Assembly (NCBI GenBank): GCA_903901225.1
Contig: CAIUQE010000037.1
Coordinates: forward strand, 39,885 to 103,884
DNA length: 64,000 nt
From: Candidatus Omnitrophota bacterium
GTDB taxonomy: Bacteria > Omnitrophota > Gorgyraeia > Zapsychrales > Fredricksoniimonadaceae
Reading direction: 5' to 3'
Below the pieces are notes generated by a model that was not told the DNA's origin, did no database searches, and was given only the letters and a program-made list of their open reading frames with translations. How positions within the stretch are numbered: the stretch's first letter is position 1; the number at the start of each line of letters is the position of its first letter. Of the stretch, positions 14,358-64,000 are shown one piece after another. The position numbers and the translations under genes were made by a program.

Positions 14358-15083
14358 CTAAACGCCGTTCACTCTCGCCAGGGCCAGCATATCTTTAACG
14401 GCCTGGTACAACCCCGTATCGATGGCGTGAGCAATGATCGAATGGCCGATATTAAGCTCGTGGATACCGTTGATCACCGCGACCGCGCGCGTGTTCTGGT
14501 AATGCAGGCCATGCCCCACATTCACGACGAGCCCGGACTTTCGGGCATAGGCCGTCATCGCCGCCAATGCCTTCAACTCCCTGTCCCTCGCCGTTTTCGT
14601 CGGCGCCAGCGCGTAAGCGCCCGTATGGAACTCAATGATGCCGATCCCCAGTTCCAGGGTCTTGTCGATCTGTTGTTTCTCGGGATCAATGAACAGGCTG
14701 ATCGCGATGCCTTTATCCCGCATCCTGGCACAGGAGGCTTTTAAACGTTTGAATTGGGCCACGACATCAAGCCCGCCCTCCGTCGTGACCTCCTGACGGC
14801 GTTCAGGCACCAGCGTAACCTGCACCGGCCTTAAACGACAGGCAATATCAACGATCCCGGGCGCGATCGACATCTCCAGGTTGAAGCGGACGGAAAGTTC
14901 TTTTCTCAGGCGGATGACATCATCATCATTGATATGGCGGCGATCCTCACGCAGGTGAGCCACGATCGAGTCGGCTCCGGCTTTTTCACAGATCAGCGCG
15001 GCGCTCACGGGGTCGGGATAGGCACATCGCCTGGCCTGGCGCAAGGTCGCCACGTGATCGATATTGACACCCAGTAATGGCAT
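14358..15083 (-). CDS. pdxJ: pyridoxine 5'-phosphate synthase
   Basis: MPLLGVNIDHVATLRQARR... TIM-barrel PdxJ; start set at the Met preceded by GAGGTAG. Confidence 0.9.
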   Translation of the reverse strand: MPLLGVNIDHVATLRQARRCAYPDPVSAALICEKAGADSIVAHLREDRRHINDDDVIRLRKELSVRFNLEMSIAPGIVDIACRLRPVQVTLVPERRQEVTTEGGLDVVAQFKRLKASCARMRDKGIAISLFIDPEKQQIDKTLELGIGIIEFHTGAYALAPTKTARDRELKALAAMTAYARKSGLVVNVGHGLHYQNTRAVAVINGIHELNIGHSIIAHAIDTGLYQAVKDMLALARVNGV

Positions 15084-15088
15084 AAAGG

Positions 15089-15187
15089 CTACCTCAGGAT
15101 CTCGCCGTTGACATAGATCCACGTGATGATGGCAAGGCCGAGGGCGATGATCTTCAGCGGAATATTATTCGTGAAAAAAGATCTCAT
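15089..15187 (-). CDS. 32-codon membrane mini-ORF overlapping the cdaA stop (possible CdaR/YbbR N-terminal remnant)
   Basis: ATGA overlap with the cdaA stop; translation MRSFFTNNIPLKIIALGLAIITWIYVNGEILR resembles the N-terminal signal-anchor of CdaR; too short for the ORF track. Confidence 0.3.
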   Translation of the reverse strand: MRSFFTNNIPLKIIALGLAIITWIYVNGEILR

Positions 15188-15957
15188 TTTTTGCCTTTCG
15201 TGACGGAGATCAAGATGTCCCTGAGAATGGCCTGCAAGCGTTCCGGCCCGGTGACGGGGATGAATTTACCGTCACAGGCAATGGATATTTCCCCCGTTTC
15301 CTCGGAAACCAGAAGGGCCACGGCATCCGTGTGTTCCGTCAATCCCAGGGCCGCGCGATGGCGCGTGCCAATGATCTTGCTCAGGTTCTGGTTATCGGTC
15401 AAAGGGAACAGGCACGCCGCCGCGACGATCCTCTGCCCGCGGACCACAACACCCCCGTCGTGGATCGGCGACACGTGCTGGAATATCGTCTGGATCAATT
15501 CCGACGTGACCACGCCGTCGATATAAACACCGCTTTCGATATAGGCGGTTAATTTCGTTTCACGCTCAATGGCAATGATAGCCCCGGTTCTTTTTTCGGA
15601 CAGTTTGAAAACCGCCTCCGAAAGTTCACTGATGACCGCGACAACTTCGGACTCCTCCAGGAAAAGGCTGAACAGATGCCCCCGGCCCAGGCGGGCAAGC
15701 CCGTGACGGAGTTCCTGCTGAAAAAGGATGACCATGGCGAGGATGGAAATGGCGAAGAACTTCATCAGCAGCCAGTTGAGCGTGTCGAAACGCAACAGCT
15801 GGGCCAAAAGGAAAATGATGGCAAGATACGTGATCCCTTTCAAAACCTGAAAAGCGCGCGTCCCCTGAAAGAATAAGAGGATACGGTAAAATATCCACCA
15901 CAGCACGAGGATCTCCAGGAACGGCTTGATCAGTAACCAAAGTTCAAAAAAATTCAT
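15184..15957 (-). CDS. cdaA: diadenylate cyclase (c-di-AMP synthase), membrane-anchored
   Basis: Three N-terminal TM helices then a DisA_N domain with the GAIIAIE, DGGVVVRG and RHRAALGLTE motifs. Confidence 0.85.
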   Translation of the reverse strand: MNFFELWLLIKPFLEILVLWWIFYRILLFFQGTRAFQVLKGITYLAIIFLLAQLLRFDTLNWLLMKFFAISILAMVILFQQELRHGLARLGRGHLFSLFLEESEVVAVISELSEAVFKLSEKRTGAIIAIERETKLTAYIESGVYIDGVVTSELIQTIFQHVSPIHDGGVVVRGQRIVAAACLFPLTDNQNLSKIIGTRHRAALGLTEHTDAVALLVSEETGEISIACDGKFIPVTGPERLQAILRDILISVTKGKK

Positions 15958-51950: not shown

Positions 51951-52580
51951 CTAAAAACCTGCAGGGCTCTGCCGGAATTTCACGACTGTCTGGGGATTGG
52001 CCGCAGTGCCGCTGGTCAAAGCAGCTCCGGAGACCGCTGCCCCGGCGGAAGGATCTTTACGATTGACAAGGGTCATGTCAAAATAATAATCACCCGTAGT
52101 TGGGGCCGTAGTTGCCAGAGGACGGGGAATGATCGTCGAAGAGATCGTAAATTCATCACTGACCAGCGTTCCTGAAAATGTGCCTGTATTATCGCAGGTG
52201 CCGGCGGAAGTCCCTGTATCACAGGCATAAACATTCGTTCCAACAAGCGTAAAACAGTGCCAGTTATCATCGATATAAATATTGGGCGTATATGTCCCCG
52301 AGACCTCAACATCCCTGCGAAAACAGACTGTCTTATTGCTGACATCGATTGAGATCCCGGAATTCGAAGTCGTAAGGTCGCCATGAACGCGCTTGACGCT
52401 CTGACGAATATAATCCTCCAGGGCCCTGGTCATCAGATAGACCTGAATATCACCTGTCACCTGCTTGCCGGTGCTGCGCAGTCCATATTCCGCGGCAAGG
52501 ACGCCCCCCACGACCACCGATACAATAATGGTCGCTATGATCAGTTCCGTCAGCGTCAGCGCGCGTAAACTTTTTGACAT
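51951..52580 (-). CDS. prepilin-type (class III signal peptide) protein, minor pseudopilin candidate; Ala at -1
   Basis: MSKSLRA|LTLTELIIATIIV: positive leader, hydrophobic helix, Glu at +5. Confidence 0.5.
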   Translation of the reverse strand: MSKSLRALTLTELIIATIIVSVVVGGVLAAEYGLRSTGKQVTGDIQVYLMTRALEDYIRQSVKRVHGDLTTSNSGISIDVSNKTVCFRRDVEVSGTYTPNIYIDDNWHCFTLVGTNVYACDTGTSAGTCDNTGTFSGTLVSDEFTISSTIIPRPLATTAPTTGDYYFDMTLVNRKDPSAGAAVSGAALTSGTAANPQTVVKFRQSPAGF

Positions 52581-52589
52581 AAACGTATG

Positions 52590-52937
52590 CTACCAGGTTA
52601 CCGTAATGACTACTTTCCGGGCACCAACGGAATTGGTGACAACATAGGACGCTGAGCACCCTGAGAAATCGGTATCCGTCAACCCGGAGTGGGTACCGAT
52701 CGACAAATTCCCCGCAGCCCAGGCCTGGGCATTGACATCCTTGCTCAATCCATCAAGGATCTTCTTGGCCATCAGGGAAGCATTCAACCTCCCAACACTG
52801 GAACTCTCTGTCTGTTTTAATTTAGCGATGGAGCCAAAAGCAAGCATCGCGGAACCGGCAAAAATAACAGCCGCCACGACGACTTCAACAAGTGAATATG
52901 CTTTATTGGAATAATAATGCCGTCTGAACAGTATCAT
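52590..52937 (-). CDS. prepilin-type protein; Ala at -1
   Basis: Start moved to an internal Met: MILFRRHYYSNKA|YSLVEVVVAAVIFAG with Glu +5. Confidence 0.45.
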   Translation of the reverse strand: MILFRRHYYSNKAYSLVEVVVAAVIFAGSAMLAFGSIAKLKQTESSSVGRLNASLMAKKILDGLSKDVNAQAWAAGNLSIGTHSGLTDTDFSGCSASYVVTNSVGARKVVITVTW

Positions 52938-52941
52938 ATCG

Positions 52942-53346
52942 TTATGGACACGATGAATTCGAGGTTGCACATGACGGGTTGGTTGTCGAAAGGTCAGCAT
53001 TCAGATCGACCGTGATCACATAATCCGTACTTCCGGCAGTTGAAGTAGCATTGCAGGTATTAACAGCCGCGGTTCCGGATCCGCACTTATAAGTTGCCTG
53101 GTTTGCAACAATGTTCAGGCTTAATGCTGTGTTAATGTCGGTTATGGATGCTGATCCAGTAAGATTTGAACCTGTTCTTGCTTTATAGATTACATTCGCT
53201 GCGCTGATCATGGTCAGGCTTGTGATCGCATCACGTGCCCTTGACCGCCGGGAAGTTTTTCCATAATTTGGCAGAGCAAATCCCGCCAGGATGCCAATGA
53301 TGATAACCACCAACATGAGTTCAATAAGAGTGAATGAACGACGCAT
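52942..53346 (-). CDS. prepilin-type pilin; Ser at -1; C-terminal Cys-rich tail ending CP
   Basis: MRRS|FTLIELMLVVIIIGILAGFALP; paralog of the 54851-55234 gene (both end ...TVDLNA...NP.C...CP). Confidence 0.55.
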   Translation of the reverse strand: MRRSFTLIELMLVVIIIGILAGFALPNYGKTSRRSRARDAITSLTMISAANVIYKARTGSNLTGSASITDINTALSLNIVANQATYKCGSGTAAVNTCNATSTAGSTDYVITVDLNADLSTTNPSCATSNSSCP

Positions 53347-53354
53347 CGGACACC

Positions 53355-53753
53355 TCACGGGCAAGCCGTATTAGGACAAAGTTTCTTTAAGGATGCGGTA
53401 CATGACGGACAAGTATACGCGCCTGCAGTTGAAACATAAAGCGTATAAGCACCACCCGTTCTGGTTATTCCGATATTTCCGGCCACCGAACCGGTGTTAC
53501 AATCGGGAGCTGTGTAATTTTGAGGGGTAACATCGACATCCAAAGTAGTGCAGTCGGTGCTATACGCCCCATTATGCTCGAGAGAATAACGGGCTTCAGA
53601 TGCATGCAGTAATTGTGCGGCGCTAATGGCTTCGGCAAAAACCGCGCCCTCTCTCGAACCCGTTAAACGGGGAAGCGCAACGGCCGCCAAAATCCCTATA
53701 ATAATGATCACCACTATTATTTCAATTAAAGTAAAGGCTTTGTTTTCTGCCAT
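53355..53753 (-). CDS. prepilin-type pilin; Ala at -1; four C-terminal Cys
   Basis: MAENKA|FTLIEIIVVIIIIGILAAVALP; start chosen at the Met with better RBS spacing (alternative 53780). Confidence 0.55.
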   Translation of the reverse strand: MAENKAFTLIEIIVVIIIIGILAAVALPRLTGSREGAVFAEAISAAQLLHASEARYSLEHNGAYSTDCTTLDVDVTPQNYTAPDCNTGSVAGNIGITRTGGAYTLYVSTAGAYTCPSCTASLKKLCPNTACP

Positions 53754-53780
53754 CTGCGCCTTCTTTCTCTTTAAATACAT

Positions 53781-53817
53781 ATCCCCTTGGCCAAGAGCTT
53801 GACTCGGCCAAAGGGAT
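53781..53817 (-). terminator. hairpin (12-bp arms, 1 mismatch) just downstream of the major pilin gene; attenuator/terminator candidate
   Basis: ATCCCCTTGGCC...GGCCAAAGGGAT followed on the transcribed strand by AUGUAUUUAAAG. Confidence 0.35.
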
Positions 53818-53841
53818 ATATATGTCAACAAAGAACACTTC

Positions 53842-54010
53842 CTACTGCTTCAAATTGGCAAAAATGCCCCCTTTGAGCTTGTTAACTGATCCATTTGTAA
53901 CATTAATTGTAAAGGTGATAACGTCTGCTGTTGAACCACCAAGCGATGCGGTTCCTAACGCAGAAGTTGCGCTCGCGCCAGCTACATATGTGTACACAAA
54001 AGCACCCGAG
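53842..54010. repeat. near-identical direct repeat, copy 1 (3' end of pilin gene)
   Basis: About 150 bp about 95% identical to 54423-54590; the same spurious opposite-strand ORF translation appears in both copies. Confidence 0.7.
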
Positions 54011-54252
54011 GTCGGAAACTGGAAACCTGACAGTTGCGCCGTTGTATCGCACTTAGTTATATCTTCAGAAGCTGTATAACATTCCATAATTTTATGCATG
54101 AGCGAGCCAAGAATACCGTAGGCTTCGGCTGCTTTTGAAACACTGACCTGGTTAGAAAGCTTCGGCAAAGCCACGGCAGCGAGGACACCAATGATAATAA
54201 CAACGATGATTATTTCAATGAGCGTAAAACCTTTTTTATTCTTTTTAATCAT
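53842..54252 (-). CDS. type IV major pilin / pseudopilin candidate with canonical Gly at -1
   Basis: MIKKNKKG|FTLIEIIIVVIIIGVLAAVALP; own TATAAT promoter and strong RBS; 136 aa. Confidence 0.7.
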   Translation of the reverse strand: MIKKNKKGFTLIEIIIVVIIIGVLAAVALPKLSNQVSVSKAAEAYGILGSLMHKIMECYTASEDITKCDTTAQLSGFQFPTSGAFVYTYVAGASATSALGTASLGGSTADVITFTINVTNGSVNKLKGGIFANLKQ

Positions 54253-54272
54253 AACCTTCCCCCTTTTTGTAA

Positions 54273-54302
54273 ATTATAACGATAAAAAATAAAAATTACT
54301 AA
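54273..54302 (-). promoter_or_regulatory. promoter for the major pilin gene: perfect TATAAT -10, weak -35, AT-rich upstream region
   Basis: Minus strand TTAGTA-(17/18)-TATAAT, then a 13-nt leader with GGGGAAGG RBS and ATG at 54252. Confidence 0.45.
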
Positions 54303-54422
54303 AACAAAATTTCAACTATCAAAAGTATAACTTAGAAAAATATCGATATCAAGGACTTCTTGATAAATTATTGCCTTATTTTTTTCAAAGCTAAATCATC
54401 GCACATATAATTTTGAAAAGCA

Positions 54423-54590
54423 TTATTGCTTCAAATTAGAAAAAATGCCCCCTTTAAGCTTGTTAACTGATCCATTTGTAACATTAATTGTAAAGGTGAT
54501 AACGTCTGCTGTTGAACCACCAAGCGATGCGGTTCCTGTCGCAGAAGTTGCACTCGCGCCAGCAACATATGAATATACAAAGTTAGCTGA
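54423..54590. repeat. near-identical direct repeat, copy 2 (3' end of pilin paralog)
   Basis: See copy 1 at 53842-54010. Confidence 0.7.
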
Positions 54591-54833
54591 CGACGGAAAC
54601 GCGAAACTTGGCAGTTTAGCGACGGCATCGCACTGATTCATATTTTCAGCCATTGTATAACATTCCATGATTTTACGCATAAGCGTGCCTAAAATACTGT
54701 ACGCTTCCGCGGCTTTCGCGACACTGACCTGGTTGGCCAATTTCGGCAATGCCGTAGAAGCCAGGACACCAATGATAATGACCACAATGATAATTTCGAT
54801 AAGCGTGAAAGCTTTCGTTTTAAGTCGGGTCAT
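54423..54833 (-). CDS. type IV pilin paralog of 53842-54252; Ala at -1
   Basis: MTRLKTKA|FTLIEIIIVVIIIGVLASTALP; C-terminal 40 aa nearly identical to the neighbouring copy; start moved to an internal Met after GGAGGA. Confidence 0.65.
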   Translation of the reverse strand: MTRLKTKAFTLIEIIIVVIIIGVLASTALPKLANQVSVAKAAEAYSILGTLMRKIMECYTMAENMNQCDAVAKLPSFAFPSSANFVYSYVAGASATSATGTASLGGSTADVITFTINVTNGSVNKLKGGIFSNLKQ

Positions 54834-54850
54834 ATAGTCCTCCGTAAATC

Positions 54851-55234
54851 CTATGGGCAATAAGTTCCAGAACAAAGCGGATTAGATGCCGTAACACCCG
54901 CGTTTAAATCAACAGTTGTTGAAAAATCACCACTCACCGTTGCCGTACAAAGATGTGACCCGCAAGAATACGACAACCCGTTAGGGATAATATTTAACCC
55001 GAGCCCGGAATTTATACTGCTTATACTGGAAACAACACCAGACGGGGCAAAATTATACCCGTTCTTTGATTTATAGATCGCGTTCGCGCCGCAGACAAGA
55101 GAAAGATTAGCGATCGAATCGCTGGCTTTGGCTCTTTTTATTGTTTTTGAAAATCCCGGCATAAAGAAAGCCGCCATGATCCCAATGATCACAACAACCA
55201 GCAACAGCTCAACAAGTGAAAAAGCTTTACGCAT
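54851..55234 (-). CDS. prepilin-type pilin; Ala at -1; C-terminal CP motif
   Basis: MRKA|FSLVELLLVVVIIGIMAAFFMP; paralog of the 52942-53346 gene. Confidence 0.55.
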   Translation of the reverse strand: MRKAFSLVELLLVVVIIGIMAAFFMPGFSKTIKRAKASDSIANLSLVCGANAIYKSKNGYNFAPSGVVSSISSINSGLGLNIIPNGLSYSCGSHLCTATVSGDFSTTVDLNAGVTASNPLCSGTYCP

Positions 55235-55393
55235 CGCACACTTCACAGACATAGCCGCCAACCTCACGGGACAACTTTGTCAAATGTCCAAATAATCATG
55301 AAGATCTAAATGCCAACAATGATACGCACATGTCAGCATCTAGCCCCATTACAAATATAAACCATTATAATGATGTTAACAAGCCCGGAACGC

Positions 55394-56626
55394 CTACCCG
55401 GTGGCCAAGGTTAGAATGGGCATGAACATGGCCGTAACGATCACGCCGATGATAGAACCCATGAATACGAGCATGACCGGCTCAATGACAGAACCGAACG
55501 CTTTCATGAATGTTTCAATGTTCTTCTTATAATAAACGGCAACATGATTCAACATTTTTCCCAATTCACCTGTTTCTTCACCAACACGGATCATTTGAAC
55601 GGCCATGGGAGGAAAAAACCCGCTTTGTTCCATAGGCTCGGCCAGCAACCTCCCCTCACGGACGCCTTCCCGGATCCGCTTGATGACTTCGGCACAAATC
55701 AAATTATCCACCAGGCGTTCTGAGATTTCCAAGGCATAAAGGATCGGTACGCCGCTATCCACGAGGATCGCCATTTGAGAGGTGAATTTTTCAACCACAA
55801 TGAGTTTGATCGTTTTGCCGAACACGGGCAAGCGAAACAAAAAAGCCTCAAATTGCCGACGGCCAGGGCCGGCGCTAACATACCCCTTGAACATGAAGAC
55901 AGCCGCTGCGATCCCTCCGGCCAGAAGGATAAACTTTTCCTTGACGACCTTGAAGACAAACAAAAGCCATGTCGTGATGCCGGGTAACGTGGCATGCATG
56001 TCATTGAATATTTTCTCAAAGGTAGGGCCGATAAATATGGCAAAGAAAAGTATGGCCGCCGAACAAATAAAACAAAGGACCATGGGATAGACCATGGCAC
56101 CCAGAATCGCGGAACGGAACGCGGCCTCCTGTTCCATGTATAACGTCAATTGAAGGAGGACTTTAGGCATGGTTCCCGAAGCCTCTCCCACTTCCACAAG
56201 GCTGACCCAGAACGGCGAAAAAACTTTTGGATATTTGGACAAAGCACGGCTGAAGGACTGCCCCTGTTCGACATCACGAATAGCGGCATCAAGAACATTG
56301 GCGAGCTCACGACTCTCAACCTGTTGCGAGATAACCGTGAGCGATCGCAATAACGGGACACCCGCCTCGATCATGGTCGCCAATTGCCGCGCAAAAGATA
56401 CAATGTCCTCCAAAGAAACACCGCCGCGAGTGAACTTCCTTATGGATTCACCCTGAGAGATATCCGCTCTGACGGCAGGGGCAAGGTCAGATTGTTTTTT
56501 TACTCCGGTAACAAAAAGGCCCTTGGCCTGAACCTCTTGAACGGCGCGATCGCTCGCATCCGCTTCAACTACCTCGTTAAAGATACGTCCGGACATGTCT
56601 TTGGCTGTTACCAGGAATTTTGACAT
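55394..56626 (-). CDS. gspF: type II secretion / type IV pilus platform protein (GspF/PilC family)
   Basis: 410 aa; two T2SSF repeats each followed by TM helices. Confidence 0.85.
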   Translation of the reverse strand: MSKFLVTAKDMSGRIFNEVVEADASDRAVQEVQAKGLFVTGVKKQSDLAPAVRADISQGESIRKFTRGGVSLEDIVSFARQLATMIEAGVPLLRSLTVISQQVESRELANVLDAAIRDVEQGQSFSRALSKYPKVFSPFWVSLVEVGEASGTMPKVLLQLTLYMEQEAAFRSAILGAMVYPMVLCFICSAAILFFAIFIGPTFEKIFNDMHATLPGITTWLLFVFKVVKEKFILLAGGIAAAVFMFKGYVSAGPGRRQFEAFLFRLPVFGKTIKLIVVEKFTSQMAILVDSGVPILYALEISERLVDNLICAEVIKRIREGVREGRLLAEPMEQSGFFPPMAVQMIRVGEETGELGKMLNHVAVYYKKNIETFMKAFGSVIEPVMLVFMGSIIGVIVTAMFMPILTLATG

Positions 56627-56636
56627 AGAGTACTCC

Positions 56637-58355
56637 TTATCCGATCGTCACGCCAAGTATCTCATCCAGGCTTGTGACACCCTCTTCAACCTTCTTGATC
56701 CCTGTTTCAAAAAGAGTCGCCATCCCGGCCTGACGGGCAGCATCACGCAATTCCGAATAAGGGGCATTCTTGCCTATCAAACGCCTCATATTATCATCCA
56801 CTAACAGGACCTCGGCAACCACCAAACGGCCTTTATACCCCGTGTGAGAACATTTATCGCATCCCTTGGCCCGGTAGATCAGGTCAGTGGCAAGTTTTAC
56901 CTCTCCTAACTCATCGGGTTTTGGCTCATACGCTTCTTTGCAACTGGGACAAAGTTTCCGGCCAAGCCGCTGAGCGACGATCATGGTCAACGAGGGCGTC
57001 AAAAGATAAGAAGGAACGCCAATGTCCAGCAAACGTGAAATAGCGGATGGGGCGTCATTCGTATGCAGCGTGGAAAGCACAAAATGGCCCGTCAAAGCCG
57101 CGCGCGCGCATATCTGCGCGGTCTCAAGATCACGCACCTCCCCCACCATGATAATATCAGGGTCCTGACGCAAAAAAGAGCGTAACGCTTCGGCGAAGGT
57201 GAAACCAATATCCGGCCGAACATGAACCTGATTAACCCCATCGATACGAAATTCAACGGGGTCCTCCGCGGTCATGATATTTTTGGAAGGGGACATGACC
57301 TCGCCAAGACAGGAATACAATGTTGTTGACTTTCCGCTACCGGTGGGGCCAGTTACAAAAAACAAACCATAAGGGGTCTGTAAGGCCTTGCGGATAATAA
57401 CCAGCTGCTTGGCATCAAACCCCAGGATCGACAGGTCTAAGCGGATGGCATCTTTATCAAGAATACGCATAACGATCTTCTCACCCCACACCGTGGGAAG
57501 AGACGACACGCGAAGATCGACCGTGCGATTTTCAAGCTTCGCCGAGATACGGCCATCCTGAGGCAAGCGCCTTTCCGCGATATCAAGCTTAGCCAGGATC
57601 TTCACGCGAGAAACTATATGCTGATGAAGATGTTTGCCGGGAGGAGGGATCTGATAAAGCTCGCCATCAATACGATACCTGAGCTCGATCTTGTCTTTGA
57701 AGGGCTCAATGTGAATATCACTCGCACGCTCATCTATGGCCTGGCGAATAATGAGATCCACAAGTTTAATAACAGGCGCTTCTTCAGCCCTGGCGATAAG
57801 CCTGTCAAGGCTGAGTTCGGTTTCAGATACTTCATCACTGGAAATACTATCGTTGGATGAGGTTGATCGCGCCCGTTCAACCGCCTTTCCCCACATAGTC
57901 GCGTTGAGATCCTCTGCTGCAAGATAAAAATCTGAAATGGCCTTGATAAGGTCCGAACGGGTCGCGATGACAAAATTGATGTCACAATTTGTCATCTTCT
58001 TCAAATTGTCGATCATGATAAGATCAAAAGGATTAAAAATAGCACAGGTCAACGAGTTGATATTGCGGCTAAGCGGGAGGACCAAATGTTCTTTCGCGTA
58101 TTCATAAGGGACAAGCTTGCCAAGTCCCTGGTCTTTCTGTGGAACAAGAAGACCGGAAGCTTTCGAAGCATAAGGGATAAGGAGCTGCGTCCCCAGGGCA
58201 CTGGCCAAATCTTCTTCCTGAATAAGGCCTTTTTTTAATAACAATTCACCCAGATGCCCTTTTTCGGACTTCTGACTTTCAACGACATCCTGAAGCTGGG
58301 CCTCGGTAATAAGGCCCTGCTTGATCAAAATTTCGCCAAGCCTTAACCTTGCCAT
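56637..58355 (-). CDS. gspE: type II/IV secretion ATPase (GspE/PilB/MshE family) with N-terminal MshEN-type c-di-GMP-binding domain
   Basis: Walker A GPTGSGKSTT, Asp box, His box, tetra-Cys CPSC...CDKC; N-terminus has two copies of the RLGxx[LVI][LVI]xxG[LVI][LVI]x4[LVI]x3[LVI]xxQ motif. Confidence 0.9.
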   Translation of the reverse strand: MARLRLGEILIKQGLITEAQLQDVVESQKSEKGHLGELLLKKGLIQEEDLASALGTQLLIPYASKASGLLVPQKDQGLGKLVPYEYAKEHLVLPLSRNINSLTCAIFNPFDLIMIDNLKKMTNCDINFVIATRSDLIKAISDFYLAAEDLNATMWGKAVERARSTSSNDSISSDEVSETELSLDRLIARAEEAPVIKLVDLIIRQAIDERASDIHIEPFKDKIELRYRIDGELYQIPPPGKHLHQHIVSRVKILAKLDIAERRLPQDGRISAKLENRTVDLRVSSLPTVWGEKIVMRILDKDAIRLDLSILGFDAKQLVIIRKALQTPYGLFFVTGPTGSGKSTTLYSCLGEVMSPSKNIMTAEDPVEFRIDGVNQVHVRPDIGFTFAEALRSFLRQDPDIIMVGEVRDLETAQICARAALTGHFVLSTLHTNDAPSAISRLLDIGVPSYLLTPSLTMIVAQRLGRKLCPSCKEAYEPKPDELGEVKLATDLIYRAKGCDKCSHTGYKGRLVVAEVLLVDDNMRRLIGKNAPYSELRDAARQAGMATLFETGIKKVEEGVTSLDEILGVTIG

Positions 58356-58360
58356 AAGCC

Positions 58361-59839
58361 TTACCTGTTATATCCCGCCCGCTCATCCGCGCGATCAAGT
58401 TCCATCTGGATAGTATCCGATCGTTGAGGCCCGGAAGTTTCGCGGTCTTGCGCATTCACGACCGCGTTCTTGTTTGCTTGGTAGCCGGCATCAGAGGACA
58501 GAATATGCGGCGTGATAAATATAACAAGCTCACGATCAGTGGTACTGACTGATTTATGACGAAAAAGACGACCCATGATCGGGATATCCCCCAAAATAGG
58601 GACTTTGGTGGATGTGGTATTGTTAACGGCACGCAATAGGCCTCCAAGAACAAAAGTCTCTCCGTCACGCACCCGCATCATCACCTTTGCCCCGCGTGTT
58701 TCGGGGTCTTTAAATCCGGCGAACGCGGAATCTCTGACCTCAATGACCTTGGGGGAAACGGCGATCATGATCTCCCCTGACAGCAGGTTGATCTGCGGCG
58801 TGACCGTAAGAATTACACCTGTTTCATAGCGCTCAGCCGTATTCGTTGTGACCAATGTCGTCCCCGAACCTGAATTGGTCGAAGTCACACCGATAACCTC
58901 ATTGGTGGATATCTGTATCTGCGCTGTTTCATTATTCAATGTCAGTAGACGTGGCCGCGCCAGCGTCTTTGTGTCTGTTTTAGTCGTCAAAAACTGCAAA
59001 GCGGCAGAGAACGCTTGGCCGTTCATAACCCCCCTCGAATAAGTTGTTCCCATCGCGCCGTTATTCAACGCATCCTTTTGGCTCAACGGCCATAAAAAGT
59101 CATTGCCACCCAACCCCTGAATGTTATAAAGCGTAGCACCAAACTTAACCCCCATCTGCTGAAGTGCCGACTTGGACGTGTCGATCATTTCAACCTGGAT
59201 AAGCACTTGCGGTATGGATACATCAAGTTTGGCAATAATGCCTTCAATAGCTGGGAAATTCTCTTCCAAAGCCGTTATGACCAAACTATTCGTGCGCAGA
59301 TCAGTCACGATCTTGCCCCCATCACCAACGACCGATTGCAATGCAGATACAATATCGCCACCTGTACCGGCACCTGCAGCCGCTGCCGCCCCGGTCGCCG
59401 TTGGATCAGTAATTGATATCGTTGAAAGAACTTTGGACCCGGGCAAAGCGGTATATTTCAAAGGATACACGCGCGTTGCTGTCTTTTTTACCAGAGTTAG
59501 TTGCGGTGTCACAAAGAAGATATTCGACCGCGCATCATATGTGAACTTAAGATCGTTTGCCGTTAAAACTTTATCCAGCGCCACCTCAACAGGGACATCG
59601 TTAAGAAGCACTGTCACAGTCAAGTTCTTAACAAGACTTGAAAGAATAAAATTTGATCCAATCTTTTTAGAAAAAACCTTCAAAACATCTTTAATATCCG
59701 CATCTTTAAAATCAAGGGATATCACCTTCGAATATTGCGCAAGAAGAAAAGGGCTGCCCTGGTCCGGATCAGCCGCAAAAGAACCCGTCACGCCAATAAA
59801 AAACAGGATAATGGATATAATGGCTGGGCTTTTCTTCAC
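58361..59839 (-). CDS. secretin (GspD/PilQ family), short form
   Basis: Signal peptide, N0-like domain (ISLDFKDADIKDVLKVFSKKIG), secretin_N repeats, C-terminal secretin domain; 492 aa. Confidence 0.85.
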   Translation of the reverse strand: MKKSPAIISIILFFIGVTGSFAADPDQGSPFLLAQYSKVISLDFKDADIKDVLKVFSKKIGSNFILSSLVKNLTVTVLLNDVPVEVALDKVLTANDLKFTYDARSNIFFVTPQLTLVKKTATRVYPLKYTALPGSKVLSTISITDPTATGAAAAAGAGTGGDIVSALQSVVGDGGKIVTDLRTNSLVITALEENFPAIEGIIAKLDVSIPQVLIQVEMIDTSKSALQQMGVKFGATLYNIQGLGGNDFLWPLSQKDALNNGAMGTTYSRGVMNGQAFSAALQFLTTKTDTKTLARPRLLTLNNETAQIQISTNEVIGVTSTNSGSGTTLVTTNTAERYETGVILTVTPQINLLSGEIMIAVSPKVIEVRDSAFAGFKDPETRGAKVMMRVRDGETFVLGGLLRAVNNTTSTKVPILGDIPIMGRLFRHKSVSTTDRELVIFITPHILSSDAGYQANKNAVVNAQDRETSGPQRSDTIQMELDRADERAGYNR

Positions 59840-59846
59840 TTTCTCC

Positions 59847-60320
59847 TCATTCGTTATTAAAAGATGTCGTAAATTTCTCTTCCTTGAATAAGAACACGAT
59901 GCCTTTTTTTTCTATCTTAAATATTTTTGCACCGGCGACAATTTCACCCTCCTGAAGCACCTGCCCATTGATAACGGCTACAGGATGCTCACCATCATAT
60001 AAAACCCCCGTGATCTTCATATCGGGAAGAACAACTTTTTGCTTGACTGGCGGCGGCGCCTTAACTTTAACAACCCGGGGTGGTATCGCCTTCTTCGCCT
60101 CCTGCATTAATTTAGTTTCACGCGCACGCCGGGCCTCATTGATACGTTGCATAAAAAGATCAAAAAGCTCAGGGACTTGGGTCTTGATGCTAAAAGGATC
60201 CATCAAGGAAGATTCTGTCTTGTCTTCAGGGGGTGGATTTTCCTGGGCTAAAGCCGACACTCCCTGTCCATGGTACAGAAAAAAGCAAAGTACGATAATA
60301 GTATATAGGCAACGCCGCAT
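59847..60320 (-). CDS. PilP/GspC-like lipoprotein-type secretin partner
   Basis: Signal peptide MRRCLYTIIVLCFFLY; C-terminal KITGVLYDGEHPVAVINGQVLQEGEIVAGAKIFKIEKKGIVFLFK resembles the PilP/GspC beta-domain; start moved to an internal Met to limit overlap. Confidence 0.45.
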   Translation of the reverse strand: MRRCLYTIIVLCFFLYHGQGVSALAQENPPPEDKTESSLMDPFSIKTQVPELFDLFMQRINEARRARETKLMQEAKKAIPPRVVKVKAPPPVKQKVVLPDMKITGVLYDGEHPVAVINGQVLQEGEIVAGAKIFKIEKKGIVFLFKEEKFTTSFNNE

Positions 60321-60324
60321 ATTA

Positions 60325-61020
60325 CTATTTTTTTTGAAGATTTTTTTTGTCATTCTCCACCAATGCGATTGACGCGACATCCAGGATCATTGACAACGAG
60401 AACTTCGTCTGATTCTCGGCAACAGCGGTCTGATCGTCCCTCATTTCAAATTCGTTGATGCTGGAGTTAATCGAACAGGAATTCACCTTAACGAAGTGTT
60501 TCCCTTTCTCCAGGTCACGCACAAAAGCCAACGCATCCTGAAATGTCATCCCTGAACACAAAAATCTGATGCTCACCGTACGAAAAAAACCGCTGGACGT
60601 TCTGCGAACGGGCTCAAATGAATTGATCTGGATATTAAGATCTGTTGCTGTTTGCGTAATAAAAGATACCAGATCAGCGTCGGATAAAGCCAGCGGGATC
60701 GTCCCCACAAAAGCCTTCCTGGCCTTGAGCGCATCCTGATACTCACGAACAGGAACCTCCTTGGCCAACAGCGCAGAAACTTTCATCTTATAATCGGAAT
60801 ATTCGCTATAACGAACATTTGCCGTAATCGCAGCCCAGATCAAAAAAACAATAACAATGATCAAATAAAGGACCAGGGCTTGCTTCTCGTTAATGAACTC
60901 CCTGAGATCTTCAGGCTTTAAGTTCTTTATGTTGTAAAGTAATTTTTTGAGATCATCGACAGAAACACTTGAGAAGCGACCGGGGTCGATCTTGAACTTC
61001 TTAAGATCAGGAGTATTCAT
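60325..61020 (-). CDS. PilO/GspM-like bitopic assembly protein
   Basis: Cytoplasmic N-terminus, single TM (LVLYLIIVIVFLIWAAI), about 160-aa periplasmic domain; position between the PilMN fusion and the PilP-like gene. Confidence 0.45.
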   Translation of the reverse strand: MNTPDLKKFKIDPGRFSSVSVDDLKKLLYNIKNLKPEDLREFINEKQALVLYLIIVIVFLIWAAITANVRYSEYSDYKMKVSALLAKEVPVREYQDALKARKAFVGTIPLALSDADLVSFITQTATDLNIQINSFEPVRRTSSGFFRTVSIRFLCSGMTFQDALAFVRDLEKGKHFVKVNSCSINSSINEFEMRDDQTAVAENQTKFSLSMILDVASIALVENDKKNLQKK

Positions 61021-62666
61021 TTCCCCTCACATGCGATCGAAAAGGCAACGATCTTATTTTGGGTAGCTTTGAATTCTTTAGCAATAACTCCGGAAAGTTT
61101 TATGTTCTTGAAAAGAGAAGACATCATGGCATCAGCTTGCAACGTATCAACAAAAACATTAACAAGCACATACGTTTCATTAAGATCACGCGAATACGCC
61201 GACCCGGAAAAGGTCATTCTTACAATTGTTTTAAGGGATGTGTAGGCCGAAACGGGCAAGCCATCCAACGCGTCGGATTGCTCTGTTGGATTTTCAACGG
61301 CGGCTGTTTTGTCATCAAAATCAACCTGGACATTTTCTATCCATATCCCCTTAGGAACAAGGCTCGCGAATCTGGCAACAAACGGCTCCATGCGGCTTTT
61401 TAAAGGCAGCTTCTTGAGTGCGGTCAGTTTTTCTACTTCTTCAAGAGTTTTTTTCTGAGCTTCTTCCTGTGTCAAGTCCGGACTGGTGCTCAAACGTTCA
61501 GAAACAGCCAGGAACTGGTCACGCACTGTCCTGACAAGCTCGCCGCCGCCCCATGAGGTCAGGACCATCAAAAACACACAGATAACCCCGATAACAACCG
61601 GGAGAATGAGCTGGCGATTCCTTTCCAGTATTTCATCTTTCTTCAAGGAAACCTGACGGGAAGCCCCTTCAGAAAGATTAAAGTCAATGACGGATGGGAC
61701 CGTGCCCGCAAGAGCTGCCCCGAAAGCAGCAACCTCACCCACGTCTGTCACATTGGACAGTCCGAGCTGACGCAAAGGATCAACAATATCGACGGGCATA
61801 CCTATATCTTCGCTCAACCCTGACCAGAAAGACTGGTTCAACCCGGAAGAAAAAATGATGATCTTGTTGATGTCTTCATTCTCATGCTGGCGCGAAAAAA
61901 ACTCAAAAGACATCCTGACCTCATTGAACAATTTCATGCGAGACACTTCTTCATTACCCTTGGGAACAGGCAACGGCAACAGCGCTGAGGCCAACTCCGG
62001 CATGATCTGGACTTTAAAATCCCGAATGAATTTTACATGGCCTTTCGAGGTGATGATCAGCGATCCGGAATCTTTGGAAGTCAGGAGGATCGCCGTCACC
62101 TGCGAAGGCTCGATCTGCTTTTTAAAGATCAAGGACCTGATCAAACTGGTCGGACCTGGCTCACTGTAAACAACGTTAAGCCCGGATTGTGAAAGGACAT
62201 TCAGATACCTTTGAAAAACATCCTTGCGAATGGCAACAAAAAGTATCCCGATCTGCCGCGCATCGCCCTTGACCAGGGTTGTTGGATAATATGTATACGC
62301 CATCTCATCGATCGGGAAAGGAGTATATTTCTTTGCTTCATACGCGACAACATCCTGGATCTCACTGGTTTTCATCCACGGAATAACAAACCAGCGGATC
62401 AAAACATCTTTGGAAGGAATGGAAAAATATGTTTCAAGGACCGAAAAGCCTTTGTTCGTGACCGCTTTCTGGATGGCATCAAGAAAAGAGGGGTCATCAA
62501 AATCGGGGTTCCCGCCCGCATCAGGCTTCAAAAGGGAGGAAAATGGCACAAACGCGGAAATTGTCGCCGCATCCCGATCCACTTCAACAAAGCTGAAGCC
62601 GGTTTCTCCCCAATGAAGACCGAGTCGTTTACGATTGCTGGGCATGTGTGTTATCCATAAAATCAA
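61017..62666 (-). CDS. PilM-PilN fusion (GspL-like): cytoplasmic actin-like domain, TM helix, periplasmic domain
   Basis: 549 aa; about 340-aa N-terminal region with the PilM/FtsA-like ATPase fold pattern, TM LILPVVIGVICVFLMVL, about 190-aa C-terminal periplasmic region. Confidence 0.55.
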   Translation of the reverse strand: MILWITHMPSNRKRLGLHWGETGFSFVEVDRDAATISAFVPFSSLLKPDAGGNPDFDDPSFLDAIQKAVTNKGFSVLETYFSIPSKDVLIRWFVIPWMKTSEIQDVVAYEAKKYTPFPIDEMAYTYYPTTLVKGDARQIGILFVAIRKDVFQRYLNVLSQSGLNVVYSEPGPTSLIRSLIFKKQIEPSQVTAILLTSKDSGSLIITSKGHVKFIRDFKVQIMPELASALLPLPVPKGNEEVSRMKLFNEVRMSFEFFSRQHENEDINKIIIFSSGLNQSFWSGLSEDIGMPVDIVDPLRQLGLSNVTDVGEVAAFGAALAGTVPSVIDFNLSEGASRQVSLKKDEILERNRQLILPVVIGVICVFLMVLTSWGGGELVRTVRDQFLAVSERLSTSPDLTQEEAQKKTLEEVEKLTALKKLPLKSRMEPFVARFASLVPKGIWIENVQVDFDDKTAAVENPTEQSDALDGLPVSAYTSLKTIVRMTFSGSAYSRDLNETYVLVNVFVDTLQADAMMSSLFKNIKLSGVIAKEFKATQNKIVAFSIACEGK

Positions 62667-62717: not shown

Positions 62718-63065
62718 CTAATAAGAAACGGTCGTGTCGATCCTGGTCGTCCCTGAGGGTCCCGCGCTCGCTGTACTCGTGAATGTGACAGTATACGTCC
62801 TGCTGCCCGCAATCCCGCCGGTAGAACTGGGCGTGGGCTCGGAATAATCAGAGGGAGGAACACCGCCATTCTGATACCCTCTCCAGAAAGCTCCCTTGGC
62901 CAGTATTTCCGCCTGAATATGAGCCGCCTGGCTCTCCGCGATCGCGGCCTTGCTCAGGTAACGGCTTACCGTCCCTAATGTAATAAGAGACATTACCAAG
63001 ATCGCCGCAATAACAATGACCAAGACCAACCCTCTGTCTTTCCGAAAAATCCCGGCATCAAGCAT
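62718..63065 (-). CDS. GspK-like minor pseudopilin candidate (Gly -1, no Glu +5)
   Basis: Start moved to an internal Met: MLDAGIFRKDRG|LVLVIVIAAILVMSLITLG resembles GspK N-termini (RGVALIxVLLxVAxLT); short (about 115 aa). Confidence 0.3.
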   Translation of the reverse strand: MLDAGIFRKDRGLVLVIVIAAILVMSLITLGTVSRYLSKAAIAESQAAHIQAEILAKGAFWRGYQNGGVPPSDYSEPTPSSTGGIAGSRTYTVTFTSTASAGPSGTTRIDTTVSY

Positions 63066-63300: not shown

Positions 63301-63716
63301 CGCCGGTCCAAGCGTAATTTTATGCCCCCTTCCAGCGGCGCCTCATCTAGATGAGCATCAGTCTTGGGCATGTTCGCCTGATCAGGTTCGACGCGCTCAC
63401 CGAGGAAGCGCGGAATAAGCTCATCGGGACGCGGCAACAAATCCTCCGCCTGGCCTGGCTTCTCGACTTGAATGCCTCGTCGCCAGTTATCCTCGTGAAC
63501 ACCATTACCGTAATAAAAGCGGGGCATCCCAAGATCGACGACGGCTGCGGGCTGAACTCTCGACGACGAAACCTCCTGATGCCTGAGAATAGCGCCCAAA
63601 AAGACATAGTTGATCCGGTAAATGTCCTGAGTTCCCCTGACCGTCAATGTAAAACAAGCTAAAACAGCCACATGGATCAAAAAAGATATGCCGGCGTTAC
63701 GGTACAACAACATCAC
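63297..63716 (-). CDS. hypothetical membrane-anchored protein (possibly a short TonB/TolA-like partner of ExbD)
   Basis: N-terminal TM, Pro/Glu-containing linker; lies directly downstream of an exbD/tolR-like gene; weak. Confidence 0.2.
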   Translation of the reverse strand: MMLLYRNAGISFLIHVAVLACFTLTVRGTQDIYRINYVFLGAILRHQEVSSSRVQPAAVVDLGMPRFYYGNGVHEDNWRRGIQVEKPGQAEDLLPRPDELIPRFLGERVEPDQANMPKTDAHLDEAPLEGGIKLRLDRR

Positions 63717-64000
63717 TCTTCTCTGTCTGTAGCCAGGTTGATGGTTGAAAAGCCAAGGCTACGGCCCATATCCCATATCTCCACCACCCTGCCAATTGAA
63801 GCGCGCCGGTCCGCTTGGATAAGAACCGACCGGGAGTCAGTCCTGGCCGAAGCAAGAAAATTTCTCAATTCCAGCAAGGTAACTATTTTATCATGAACGT
63901 ACACGATATTCTCACCTGTAACAACTATTTTTATATCTTTCCCGCTGGCCATGTCGCTCGTGATCGCTTTCGGAAGCTTAACCCCGAACGGCGTGGACAA
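63713..64000 (-). CDS. ExbD/TolR family biopolymer transport protein (5' end outside the window)
   Basis: C-terminal periplasmic domain pattern ...SVLIQADRRASIGRVVEIWDMGRSLGFSTINLAT. Confidence 0.6.
   Translation of the reverse strand: MSTPFGVKLPKAITSDMASGKDIKIVVTGENIVYVHDKIVTLLELRNFLASARTDSRSVLIQADRRASIGRVVEIWDMGRSLGFSTINLATDREE

Follow-up and report, generated by a model that had tools for sequence, protein, structure and literature searches.

The pilin gene array and its leader peptides

A stretch of 64,000 nucleotides from a Candidatus Omnitrophota bacterium (contig CAIUQE010000037.1, positions 39,885 to 103,884; hereafter the window) carries on its minus strand, at 51951–55252, seven consecutive genes whose products all have a class III (prepilin) signal peptide. 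These genes, here called pilin1 to pilin7, are the pilin set that ends a type IVa-pilus-like operon. The residues directly before the predicted cleavage site (position −1) are A, A, G, A, S, A and A from pilin1 to pilin7, encoded by GCT, GCT, GGT, GCC, TCA, GCA and GCG. The open reading frames (ORFs) and motifs, with five Ala, one Ser and one Gly at −1, are thus present as described in an earlier note made from the sequence alone.

With the start codons that ribosome-binding sites and the gene calls of the public contig support best, the N-termini, with a slash at the predicted cleavage site, are MSVKCAMRKA/FSLVE (pilin1), MTRLKTKA/FTLIE (pilin2), MIKKNKKG/FTLIE (pilin3), MAENKA/FTLIE (pilin4), MRRS/FTLIE (pilin5), MILFRRHYYSNKA/YSLVE (pilin6) and MSKSLRA/LTLTE (pilin7). 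The leaders are short and basic (4–13 amino acids, net charge 0 to +4). They retain a basic residue at −2 and are followed at +1 by F, F, F, F, F, Y and L, respectively. All seven proteins have Glu at +5 (Glu+5) and then at least 12–14 uncharged or hydrophobic residues. Several of the ORFs have ambiguous starts with GTG or TTG extensions, and the earlier note had allowed that wrongly chosen start codons might conceal a Gly. This objection fails: the −1 residue is independent of the choice of start codon because it is defined by the register with Glu+5, and the six non-Gly leaders have no Gly in the 6 residues upstream. The identical pilin sequences were found on 16–33 independently assembled contigs, which therefore rules out assembly error.

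As the earlier note had proposed, we applied a rule for class III signal peptides to the N-termini. All seven satisfy the PilFind motif for bacterial prepilins, [GAS]x4[DE] and then 14 uncharged residues, close to the N-terminus (Imam et al. 2011, PMC3244431). A Gly-requiring PROSITE-type pattern matched pilin3 alone, the only one of the seven with Gly at −1. Pilins 1–5 score above the cutoffs of the Pfam family PF07963 N_methyl (23.7–36.7 bits, cutoff 21.2) and of TIGR02532 (24.2–33.5 bits, cutoff 16.3), and pilins 6 and 7 are under both, with 16 bits for N_methyl and 12.5–13.5 bits for TIGR02532. We assign the latter two as putative type IV pilins from their motif, their synteny and their conservation in relatives. 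Against a generic pilin background, in which 10/118 sequences are non-Gly at −1, the probability of at least six non-Gly residues among seven is 2.4e-6; taking the related Omnitrophota loci as background (31/72), it is 0.03. Among bacteria generally the array is therefore unusual, and within its own lineage it is just somewhat extreme.

Three of the proteins, as noted earlier, end in Cys-Pro: pilin1 (54851–55252, minus strand; 133 amino acids, 6 Cys, ending ..GTYCP; N_methyl 23.7 bits), pilin4 (53355–53753, minus strand; 132 amino acids from the MAENKA start, 6 Cys, ending ..NTACP) and pilin5 (52942–53346, minus strand; 134 amino acids, 4 Cys, ending ..NSSCP). Gene callers give pilin4 132 or 141 amino acids in different assemblies, and its alternative upstream ATG lies buried in one arm of the hairpin 3' of pilin3.

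Pilin3 (53842–54252, minus strand; 136 amino acids, 2 Cys; N_methyl 36.7 bits) matches the PpdD-like model PRK10574 over residues 4–121, below the cutoff. Upstream of it lies an AT-rich spacer of 170 nucleotides with a sigma-70-like promoter match, by consensus, at 54324–54352 on the minus strand (TTGATA-17-TATACT, 10 of 12 positions), followed by the strong ribosome-binding site GGGGGAAGG. Directly 3' of its stop codon is a perfect 21-bp stem-loop (53775–53823, minus strand) with a folding free energy of −43.3 kcal/mol (z = −8.1), a stability reached by none of 200 shuffled sequences. It has no clear U-tract and is probably a partial terminator or attenuator, or a stabiliser of the mRNA. The promoter-like site, the AT-rich spacer, the strong ribosome-binding site and the stable hairpin, together with the tandem copies that this class has in relatives, make pilin3 the strongest candidate for bulk subunit, and the local signals favour it over the Cys-Pro tail pilins as the main subunit of the filament. 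We regard its identity as major pilin as plausible but unproven. The earlier statement that only the major pilin has Gly is correct in that Gly occurs in pilin3 alone; the label 'major' is less secure, and the Cys-Pro tail pilins are themselves homologues of a genuine major pilin, PilA4 (see below). In the related Omnitrophota metagenome-assembled genome (MAG) that contains locus L005, three tandem, near-identical major-like pilin genes (14376–15900), all with Gly at −1 and all ending ..ALCAGY, lie about 1.5 kb downstream of the minor-pilin block.

Pilin2 (54423–54833, minus strand; 136 amino acids) is a paralog of pilin3. The last ~135 nucleotides of the two genes are about 97% identical and the 5' two thirds about 75%, a pattern that points to gene conversion or a partial duplication in the recent past. 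The two differ at −1 (GCT, Ala, in pilin2 versus GGT, Gly, in pilin3), and the closest relative (L017) has Gly in both copies.

The remaining two genes encode a small and a large minor pilin. Pilin6 (52590–52937, minus strand; 115 amino acids) belongs to a class that is syntenic in 10 loci; weak matches under the cutoffs to ComGE (E = 4.8e-4), XpsI (0.012) and GspI (0.086) suggest that it may be a GspI/PilV/ComGE-like protein. Pilin7 (51951–52580, minus strand; 209 amino acids) may, judging from its size and position, have a GspJ/PilW-like role. Its AlphaFold2 model is unusable, with a predicted local distance difference test (pLDDT) score of 40.7. Its family is very narrow, with 5 proteins (45–100% identity) among 5.8 billion clusters, whereas the Cys-Pro tail family is huge.

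Assignment of the window pilins to more specialised systems was considered and rejected. Their bit scores for equivalogs of the competence system stay far under the cutoffs (ComGC 24–31, cutoff 75; ComGE 16–25, cutoff 49; ComGD 10–17, cutoff 70), as do those for the pseudopilins of type II secretion systems (GspG 29–40, cutoff 88.85; GspH 21–35, cutoff 80; GspI 13, cutoff 44), and the GspG/H/I and ComGC/D/E matches reach no further than the N-terminal helix. An archaeal origin was likewise rejected in view of the bacterial hallmarks (Phe at +1, Glu+5, the N_methyl and TIGR02532 signatures) and the secretin-containing bacterial operon. The G+C content of the pilin region (52000–56000) is 0.43–0.48, and that of most of the window is about 0.54.

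The −1 residue in related Omnitrophota loci

The distribution of the −1 residue was determined in 16 non-redundant Omnitrophota loci with 79 pilin-like ORFs; a metagenome collection added 6 loci, one of which duplicates L011. Gly was found 42 times, Ala 31 times, Ser 6 times and no other residue at all. The residue follows the class of pilin. Major-like pilins have 20 Gly, 2 Ala and no Ser, and the 18 near relatives of the Cys-Pro tail pilins have no Gly, 14 Ala and 4 Ser, a contrast with a Fisher p of 3e-9, uncorrected for phylogeny. The GspI-like class (5 Gly, 4 Ala, 1 Ser) and the GspJ-like class (6 Gly, 4 Ala, no Ser) are mixed. Control sequences collected as generic pilin hits have 108 Gly, 8 Ala and 2 Ser, and outgroup loci, Gammaproteobacterial and other, obtained by the procedure used for the Omnitrophota loci have Gly in 13/13.

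The Ser codons (TCA, AGC, TCA, AGT) differ, and Ser has therefore arisen independently, more than once. Orthologues also switch between residues: pilin5 has Ser in the window and Ala in L017, and pilin2 has Ala in the window and Gly in L017. In L008 and L012, the sole Cys-Pro tail pilin has Ser and its neighbours have Gly, and Ser thus occurs in an apparently functional single-copy gene. One possible Gly-bearing pilin with a Cys-rich tail (..CPNGCV) is present in L011. A looser definition of the tail class, Cys in the last 6 residues, was dropped as it takes in the major-like pilins of L005.

Non-Gly residues at −1 are thus a conserved, class-following, lineage-wide trait. This comparison of orthologous loci had been suggested in the earlier note as a way to overturn its observation; the Ala/Ser state is conserved in homologues across the 16 loci. 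The same comparison changes how the observation is to be read, since the systematic loss of Gly in paralogs noted there is a trait of the family or the lineage and not peculiar to this array.

The Cys-Pro tail family and its relation to PilA4

A profile of the Cys-Pro tail family was searched against 1.84 billion representatives and retrieved 11,877 at E ≤ 1e-10. Among the best 150 of these, 144 had a recognisable motif, with Ala at −1 in 75 (52%), Gly in 44 (31%), Ser in 25 (17%) and no other residue, so that 69% are non-Gly. An exact Cys-Pro end is present in 62/144 and Cys in the last 6 residues in 140/144; the number of Cys is even in most. Pairs of nearest neighbours, about 51% identical, have the same −1 residue in 58% of cases versus 39% by chance. 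The residue thus carries phylogenetic signal and also switches frequently (42% of pairs differ).

A profile built from pilins 1, 4 and 5 and three homologues matches Thermus thermophilus PilA4 (6xxd_A, E = 1.6e-12), with positions 10–144 aligned to chain residues 1–125, and pilins 1, 4 and 5 are by this alignment homologous to PilA4 over their full length. The leader of PilA4, which is absent from the solved chain, ends in Gly. The AlphaFold2 model of pilin5 (pLDDT 73.6, predicted template modelling score 0.62) has 6xxd_A as its best Foldseek match in the PDB (probability 1.00, TM-score 0.55–0.58, E = 0.015), which gives moderate support for a PilA4-like fold. The Cys-Pro tail, which might have been taken for a novel feature, is explained by this homology: PilA4 ends in ..ESCP, and in PilA4 this penultimate Cys is disulphide-bonded to a Cys in a beta-strand (PMC7203116).

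Processing of the prepilins

Experimental work on other prepilins bears on which −1 residues a peptidase accepts. Replacement of Gly by Ala (G-1A) in Streptococcus sanguinis PilE1 has no effect on processing or assembly, and Glu+5 is required for assembly and dispensable for cleavage (10.1101/459388). The same source relates a similar G-1A result for Pseudomonas aeruginosa (citing Strom and Lory 1991) and a block of P. aeruginosa PilD by bulkier residues. In Streptococcus pneumoniae, the leaders of all Com pilins naturally end in Ala (PMC8727766). By these findings, Ala is more than a tolerated residue, as which the earlier note had described it. The note's description of Ser as typical of archaeal substrates also finds no support in the tabulated archaeal processing sites, which mostly have Ala or Gly before the hydrophobic domain (PMC4371748).

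A search for the peptidase covered about 84 kb, namely the window and 10 kb on each end (record positions 87,853–171,498 of ENA ERZ18660404 scaffold_14, which is 201 kb long). Regular expressions for GxGDxK and looser catalytic motifs, applied to all ORFs of the window, of both extensions and of all the loci retrieved, returned nothing credible. In 12 related loci, where the surroundings of pilC were searched to a distance of about 10 kb and by catalytic motif only, no peptidase was found either. We propose that the prepilin peptidase is unlinked to the pilus operon.

The most economical interpretation of these results is that all seven pilins are probably processed by one unlinked peptidase of the PilD type, for which Gly, Ala and Ser at −1 are all acceptable. 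The set would consist of the bulk subunit pilin3 and its paralog pilin2, the PilA4-like, disulfide-rich pilins 1, 4 and 5, and the tip-type minor pilins 6 and 7. All seven prepilins would insert into the inner membrane and be cut after −1 by the peptidase, whose S1 pocket would take the three smallest residues. Gly would be held by selection for efficient processing in the high-flux major subunit, and in subunits of lower abundance, or alternative ones, the residue would drift or be weakly selected among Gly, Ala and Ser; in the PilA4-like family, Ala or Ser would in this way have become the majority state. We infer the cleavage itself, the tolerance of Ser by the peptidase of this lineage, the identity of the major pilin and the account in terms of selection and drift. 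That the pilins are still cleaved is indicated by the −1 residue being Gly, Ala or Ser in 223/223 motif-matched sequences, as a steric constraint at a cut site would require, and by the retained aromatic residue at +1, Glu+5 and basic residue at −2. A tolerant peptidase is favoured by the interchange of the three residues between orthologues and by the presence of Ser in the sole PilA4-like pilin of L008 and of L012. Several points weigh against this interpretation. Exchange of Gly for Ser (G-1S) in S. sanguinis abolishes processing and is dominant-negative (10.1101/459388), and tolerance of Ser, which is not a universal trait elsewhere, would have to be assumed for the Omnitrophota enzyme. 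Pfam annotation of the about 84 kb shows neither Peptidase_A24 nor DiS_P_DiS. The class counts are not phylogenetically independent, and the complete absence of Gly among the 18 close Cys-Pro tail relatives fits poorly with pure drift and may point to positive selection for a non-Gly residue.

As an alternative, the −1 residue might act as a processing code, in which Gly directs fast cleavage of the bulk subunit, and Ala or Ser slower cleavage or cleavage by a second, dedicated peptidase. The code would set the order or stoichiometry of the subunits, or choose between two filament types of one machine, as with PilA4 and PilA5 of Thermus. It would account for the class association (20/22 Gly in major-like pilins versus 0/18 in Cys-Pro tail pilins), for the repeated origin of Ser while Gly, one mutation from Ala, never appears in the 18, and for the 69% non-Gly in the wider family. 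It also agrees with the homology of the Cys-Pro tail pilins to a filament-forming major pilin (PMC7203116), and has a precedent in archaea, where the paralogous peptidases EppA and FlaK tell their substrates apart by the residues that adjoin the cleavage site (PMC4371748). However, 31% of the wider family has Gly and the −1 residue frequently changes between nearest neighbours, the GspI-like and GspJ-like orthologues flip freely between Gly and Ala or Ser, and the G-1A exchange in S. sanguinis is without measurable effect. Moreover, a second peptidase, or indeed any peptidase, was not seen in the regions scanned, and the class statistics are uncorrected for shared ancestry. We consider such a code unlikely, and its extension to a selected code in the Omnitrophota and the PilA4-like family generally, timing entry into the fibre or switching the filament type, slightly less likely again.

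The earlier note had left the choice between a peptidase of relaxed specificity and minor pilins that stay uncleaved; our comparative data favour the former and disfavour the latter. If uncleaved, the Ala and Ser pilins would be membrane-anchored, leader-bearing factors for assembly, priming or regulation outside the filament. The block by Ser in S. sanguinis, the block of P. aeruginosa PilD by bulkier residues as reported in the same work, the statement in a review that Gly is 'invariably' the last residue of bacterial leaders (PMC4471445) and the scores of pilins 6 and 7 under the N_methyl thresholds are all in line with this. An uncut site would be expected to relax further than the Gly, Ala and Ser found in 223/223 sequences, however, and the pilins still have Phe or Tyr at +1 (the site of N-methylation), Glu+5 and a basic residue at −2. 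Some orthologues have Gly where others have Ala or Ser, Ala is a proven natural cleavage site in the pneumococcal pilins, and 6/7 pilins, one of them nearly identical to the major pilin, would be left non-assembling. We rate this explanation lower than either form of the code. Finally, an annotation or sequence artefact of start, frame or assembly, or simple chance, is very improbable: the starts are ambiguous and gene callers are split on that of pilin4, but −1 is fixed by the invariant xFTLIE register, the identical proteins recur on many contigs, other species conserve the state at the orthologous loci, and chance against the generic background has P = 2.4e-6.

Genomic context

The operon also encodes, upstream of the pilins and on the same minus strand, a PilC/GspF platform protein (55394–56626; T2SSF, E = 3.1e-57), a PilB/MshE-type extension ATPase with an N-terminal MshEN domain (56637–58355; T2SSE, E = 2e-137; MshEN, E = 3.2e-14) and a secretin of the PilQ/GspD-like kind (58361–59839; Secretin, E = 3.6e-40; Secretin_N, E = 9.4e-10). 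These are followed by a small protein with a T2SSB-like C-terminal domain (59847–60320, minus strand; 29.7 bits, cutoff 28.4), a PilO/GspM-like protein with matches below thresholds (60325–61020, minus strand; T2SSM_b 20.5 bits, PilO 18.3 bits) and a PilM-like protein of 542 amino acids (61017–62645, minus strand), which matches PilM_2 over residues 55–159 only (E = 7e-10). The long C-terminal part of the latter contains a membrane segment, and the protein appears to be PilM fused to a putative PilN-like module. The joint presence of extension ATPase, PilC, PilM and secretin with the pilins marks the machinery as type IVa. PilT was not found in the about 84 kb, where the sole T2SSE ATPase is the extension type of the operon.

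Upstream of pilM, a gene at 62718–63065 (minus strand) encodes a pilin-like protein of 115 amino acids without Glu+5 (..RKDRG/LVLVIVIAAIL..) and with a weak match to ComGG_2 (E = 0.013). It is likely a PilX/GspK-type eighth pilin, with Gly before the helix. Directly upstream of the pilus operon and co-oriented with it are genes for an 828-amino-acid tetratricopeptide repeat (TPR) protein, ExbB (MotA_ExbB) and ExbD; these and two small ORFs that come next (L023 6439–10001, upstream of position 64000 of the window, and 63713–64000 of the window) are unusual neighbours for a type IV pilus operon. Three small ORFs stand between ExbD and the PilM(-N) gene; one is the PilX/GspK/ComGG-like protein just described, and the two that follow ExbD are unannotated and encode 138 amino acids and 80 amino acids with a four-Cys motif. 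Downstream of the pilin array are rsmE, a gene for a membrane TPR protein, recA, recX, alaS and hisD.

A stand-alone PilZ-domain protein of 127 amino acids is encoded about 3 kb beyond position 1 of the window (L022 13265–13648). The MshEN domain is counted among the targets of cyclic di-GMP (PMC12448109), and the PilZ protein together with the MshEN domain on the pilus ATPase hints at control of the pilus by this messenger. The relatives of the PilC protein in the 13 closest loci (48–86% identity) are from Candidatus Omnitrophota MAGs, except one deposited as Planctomycetales. Type-4a pili have been described as common in Omnitrophota, in a report that makes no mention of leader peptides or PilD (PMC10066038).

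Comparison with known systems

We regard the system as an ordinary type IVa pilus, here from a candidate phylum and with PilA4-like pilins in an accessory or alternative role, and not as a new kind of system. Among the closest known systems is the type IVa pilus of Thermus, likewise from a diderm with secretin, PilB-type ATPase and PilC, in which one machinery serves several pilins and builds both PilA4 and PilA5 pili (PMC7203116). The Cys-Pro pilins align end to end with T. thermophilus PilA4 (6xxd). In contrast to PilA4, the Omnitrophota homologues have Ala or Ser at −1, occur in three copies, mostly have 4–6 Cys and adjoin a different, PpdD-like putative major pilin.

The Com pilus of S. 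pneumoniae (ComGC–ComGG) shares with the array a pilin set in which conserved Ala ends the leaders and is recognised by a prepilin peptidase (PMC8727766), and a non-Gly residue is therefore compatible with normal processing and assembly. It differs in being from a monoderm without secretin and PilMNO, and its major pilin has Ala, unlike the Gly-bearing putative major pilin described here; Ser has not been reported for Com. The rules for PilD derived from mutagenesis of S. sanguinis PilE1 and, as reviewed there, of P. aeruginosa PilA (10.1101/459388) agree with our data in that −1 residues are small only and Ala replaces Gly. They differ with respect to Ser, which blocks processing in S. sanguinis and occurs naturally in 6/79 Omnitrophota pilins and 17% of the family representatives. 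The PilFind motif includes Ser; it was trained on Gram-positive pilins and has neither a class-specific split nor the PilA4-like bias seen in this diderm candidate phylum (PMC3244431). Archaeal class III peptides, processed by PibD, FlaK or EppA, are similar in that Ala is frequent before the cut and that paralogous peptidases discriminate between substrates (PMC4371748).

The non-Gly sites of the array are thus within the known or predicted range of bacterial substrates, Ala being proven and Ser part of the PilFind motif. Two aspects appear to be undescribed in the literature examined: the split between classes, in which the putative major pilin has Gly and the PilA4-like pilins have Ala or Ser, and the proportion of about two thirds non-Gly in a very large pilin family.

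Implications

Pilin finders that require Gly at −1 would miss 6/7 of the genes in this array and about two thirds of the PilA4-like family. As a consequence, pili would be under-annotated in candidate phyla, where type IV pili have been proposed for attachment to hosts (PMC10066038). The rule of an invariable Gly at the end of bacterial leaders, as given in a review (PMC4471445), fails for this lineage and family. If the split between Gly and Ala or Ser is functional, it would be a new layer of control in pilus assembly, which the present data do not require. The findings are of use for annotation and as a lead on the specificity of prepilin peptidases: the natural occurrence of Ser at −1 predicts that the peptidases of these bacteria would have a wider tolerance in the S1 pocket than the S. 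sanguinis enzyme.

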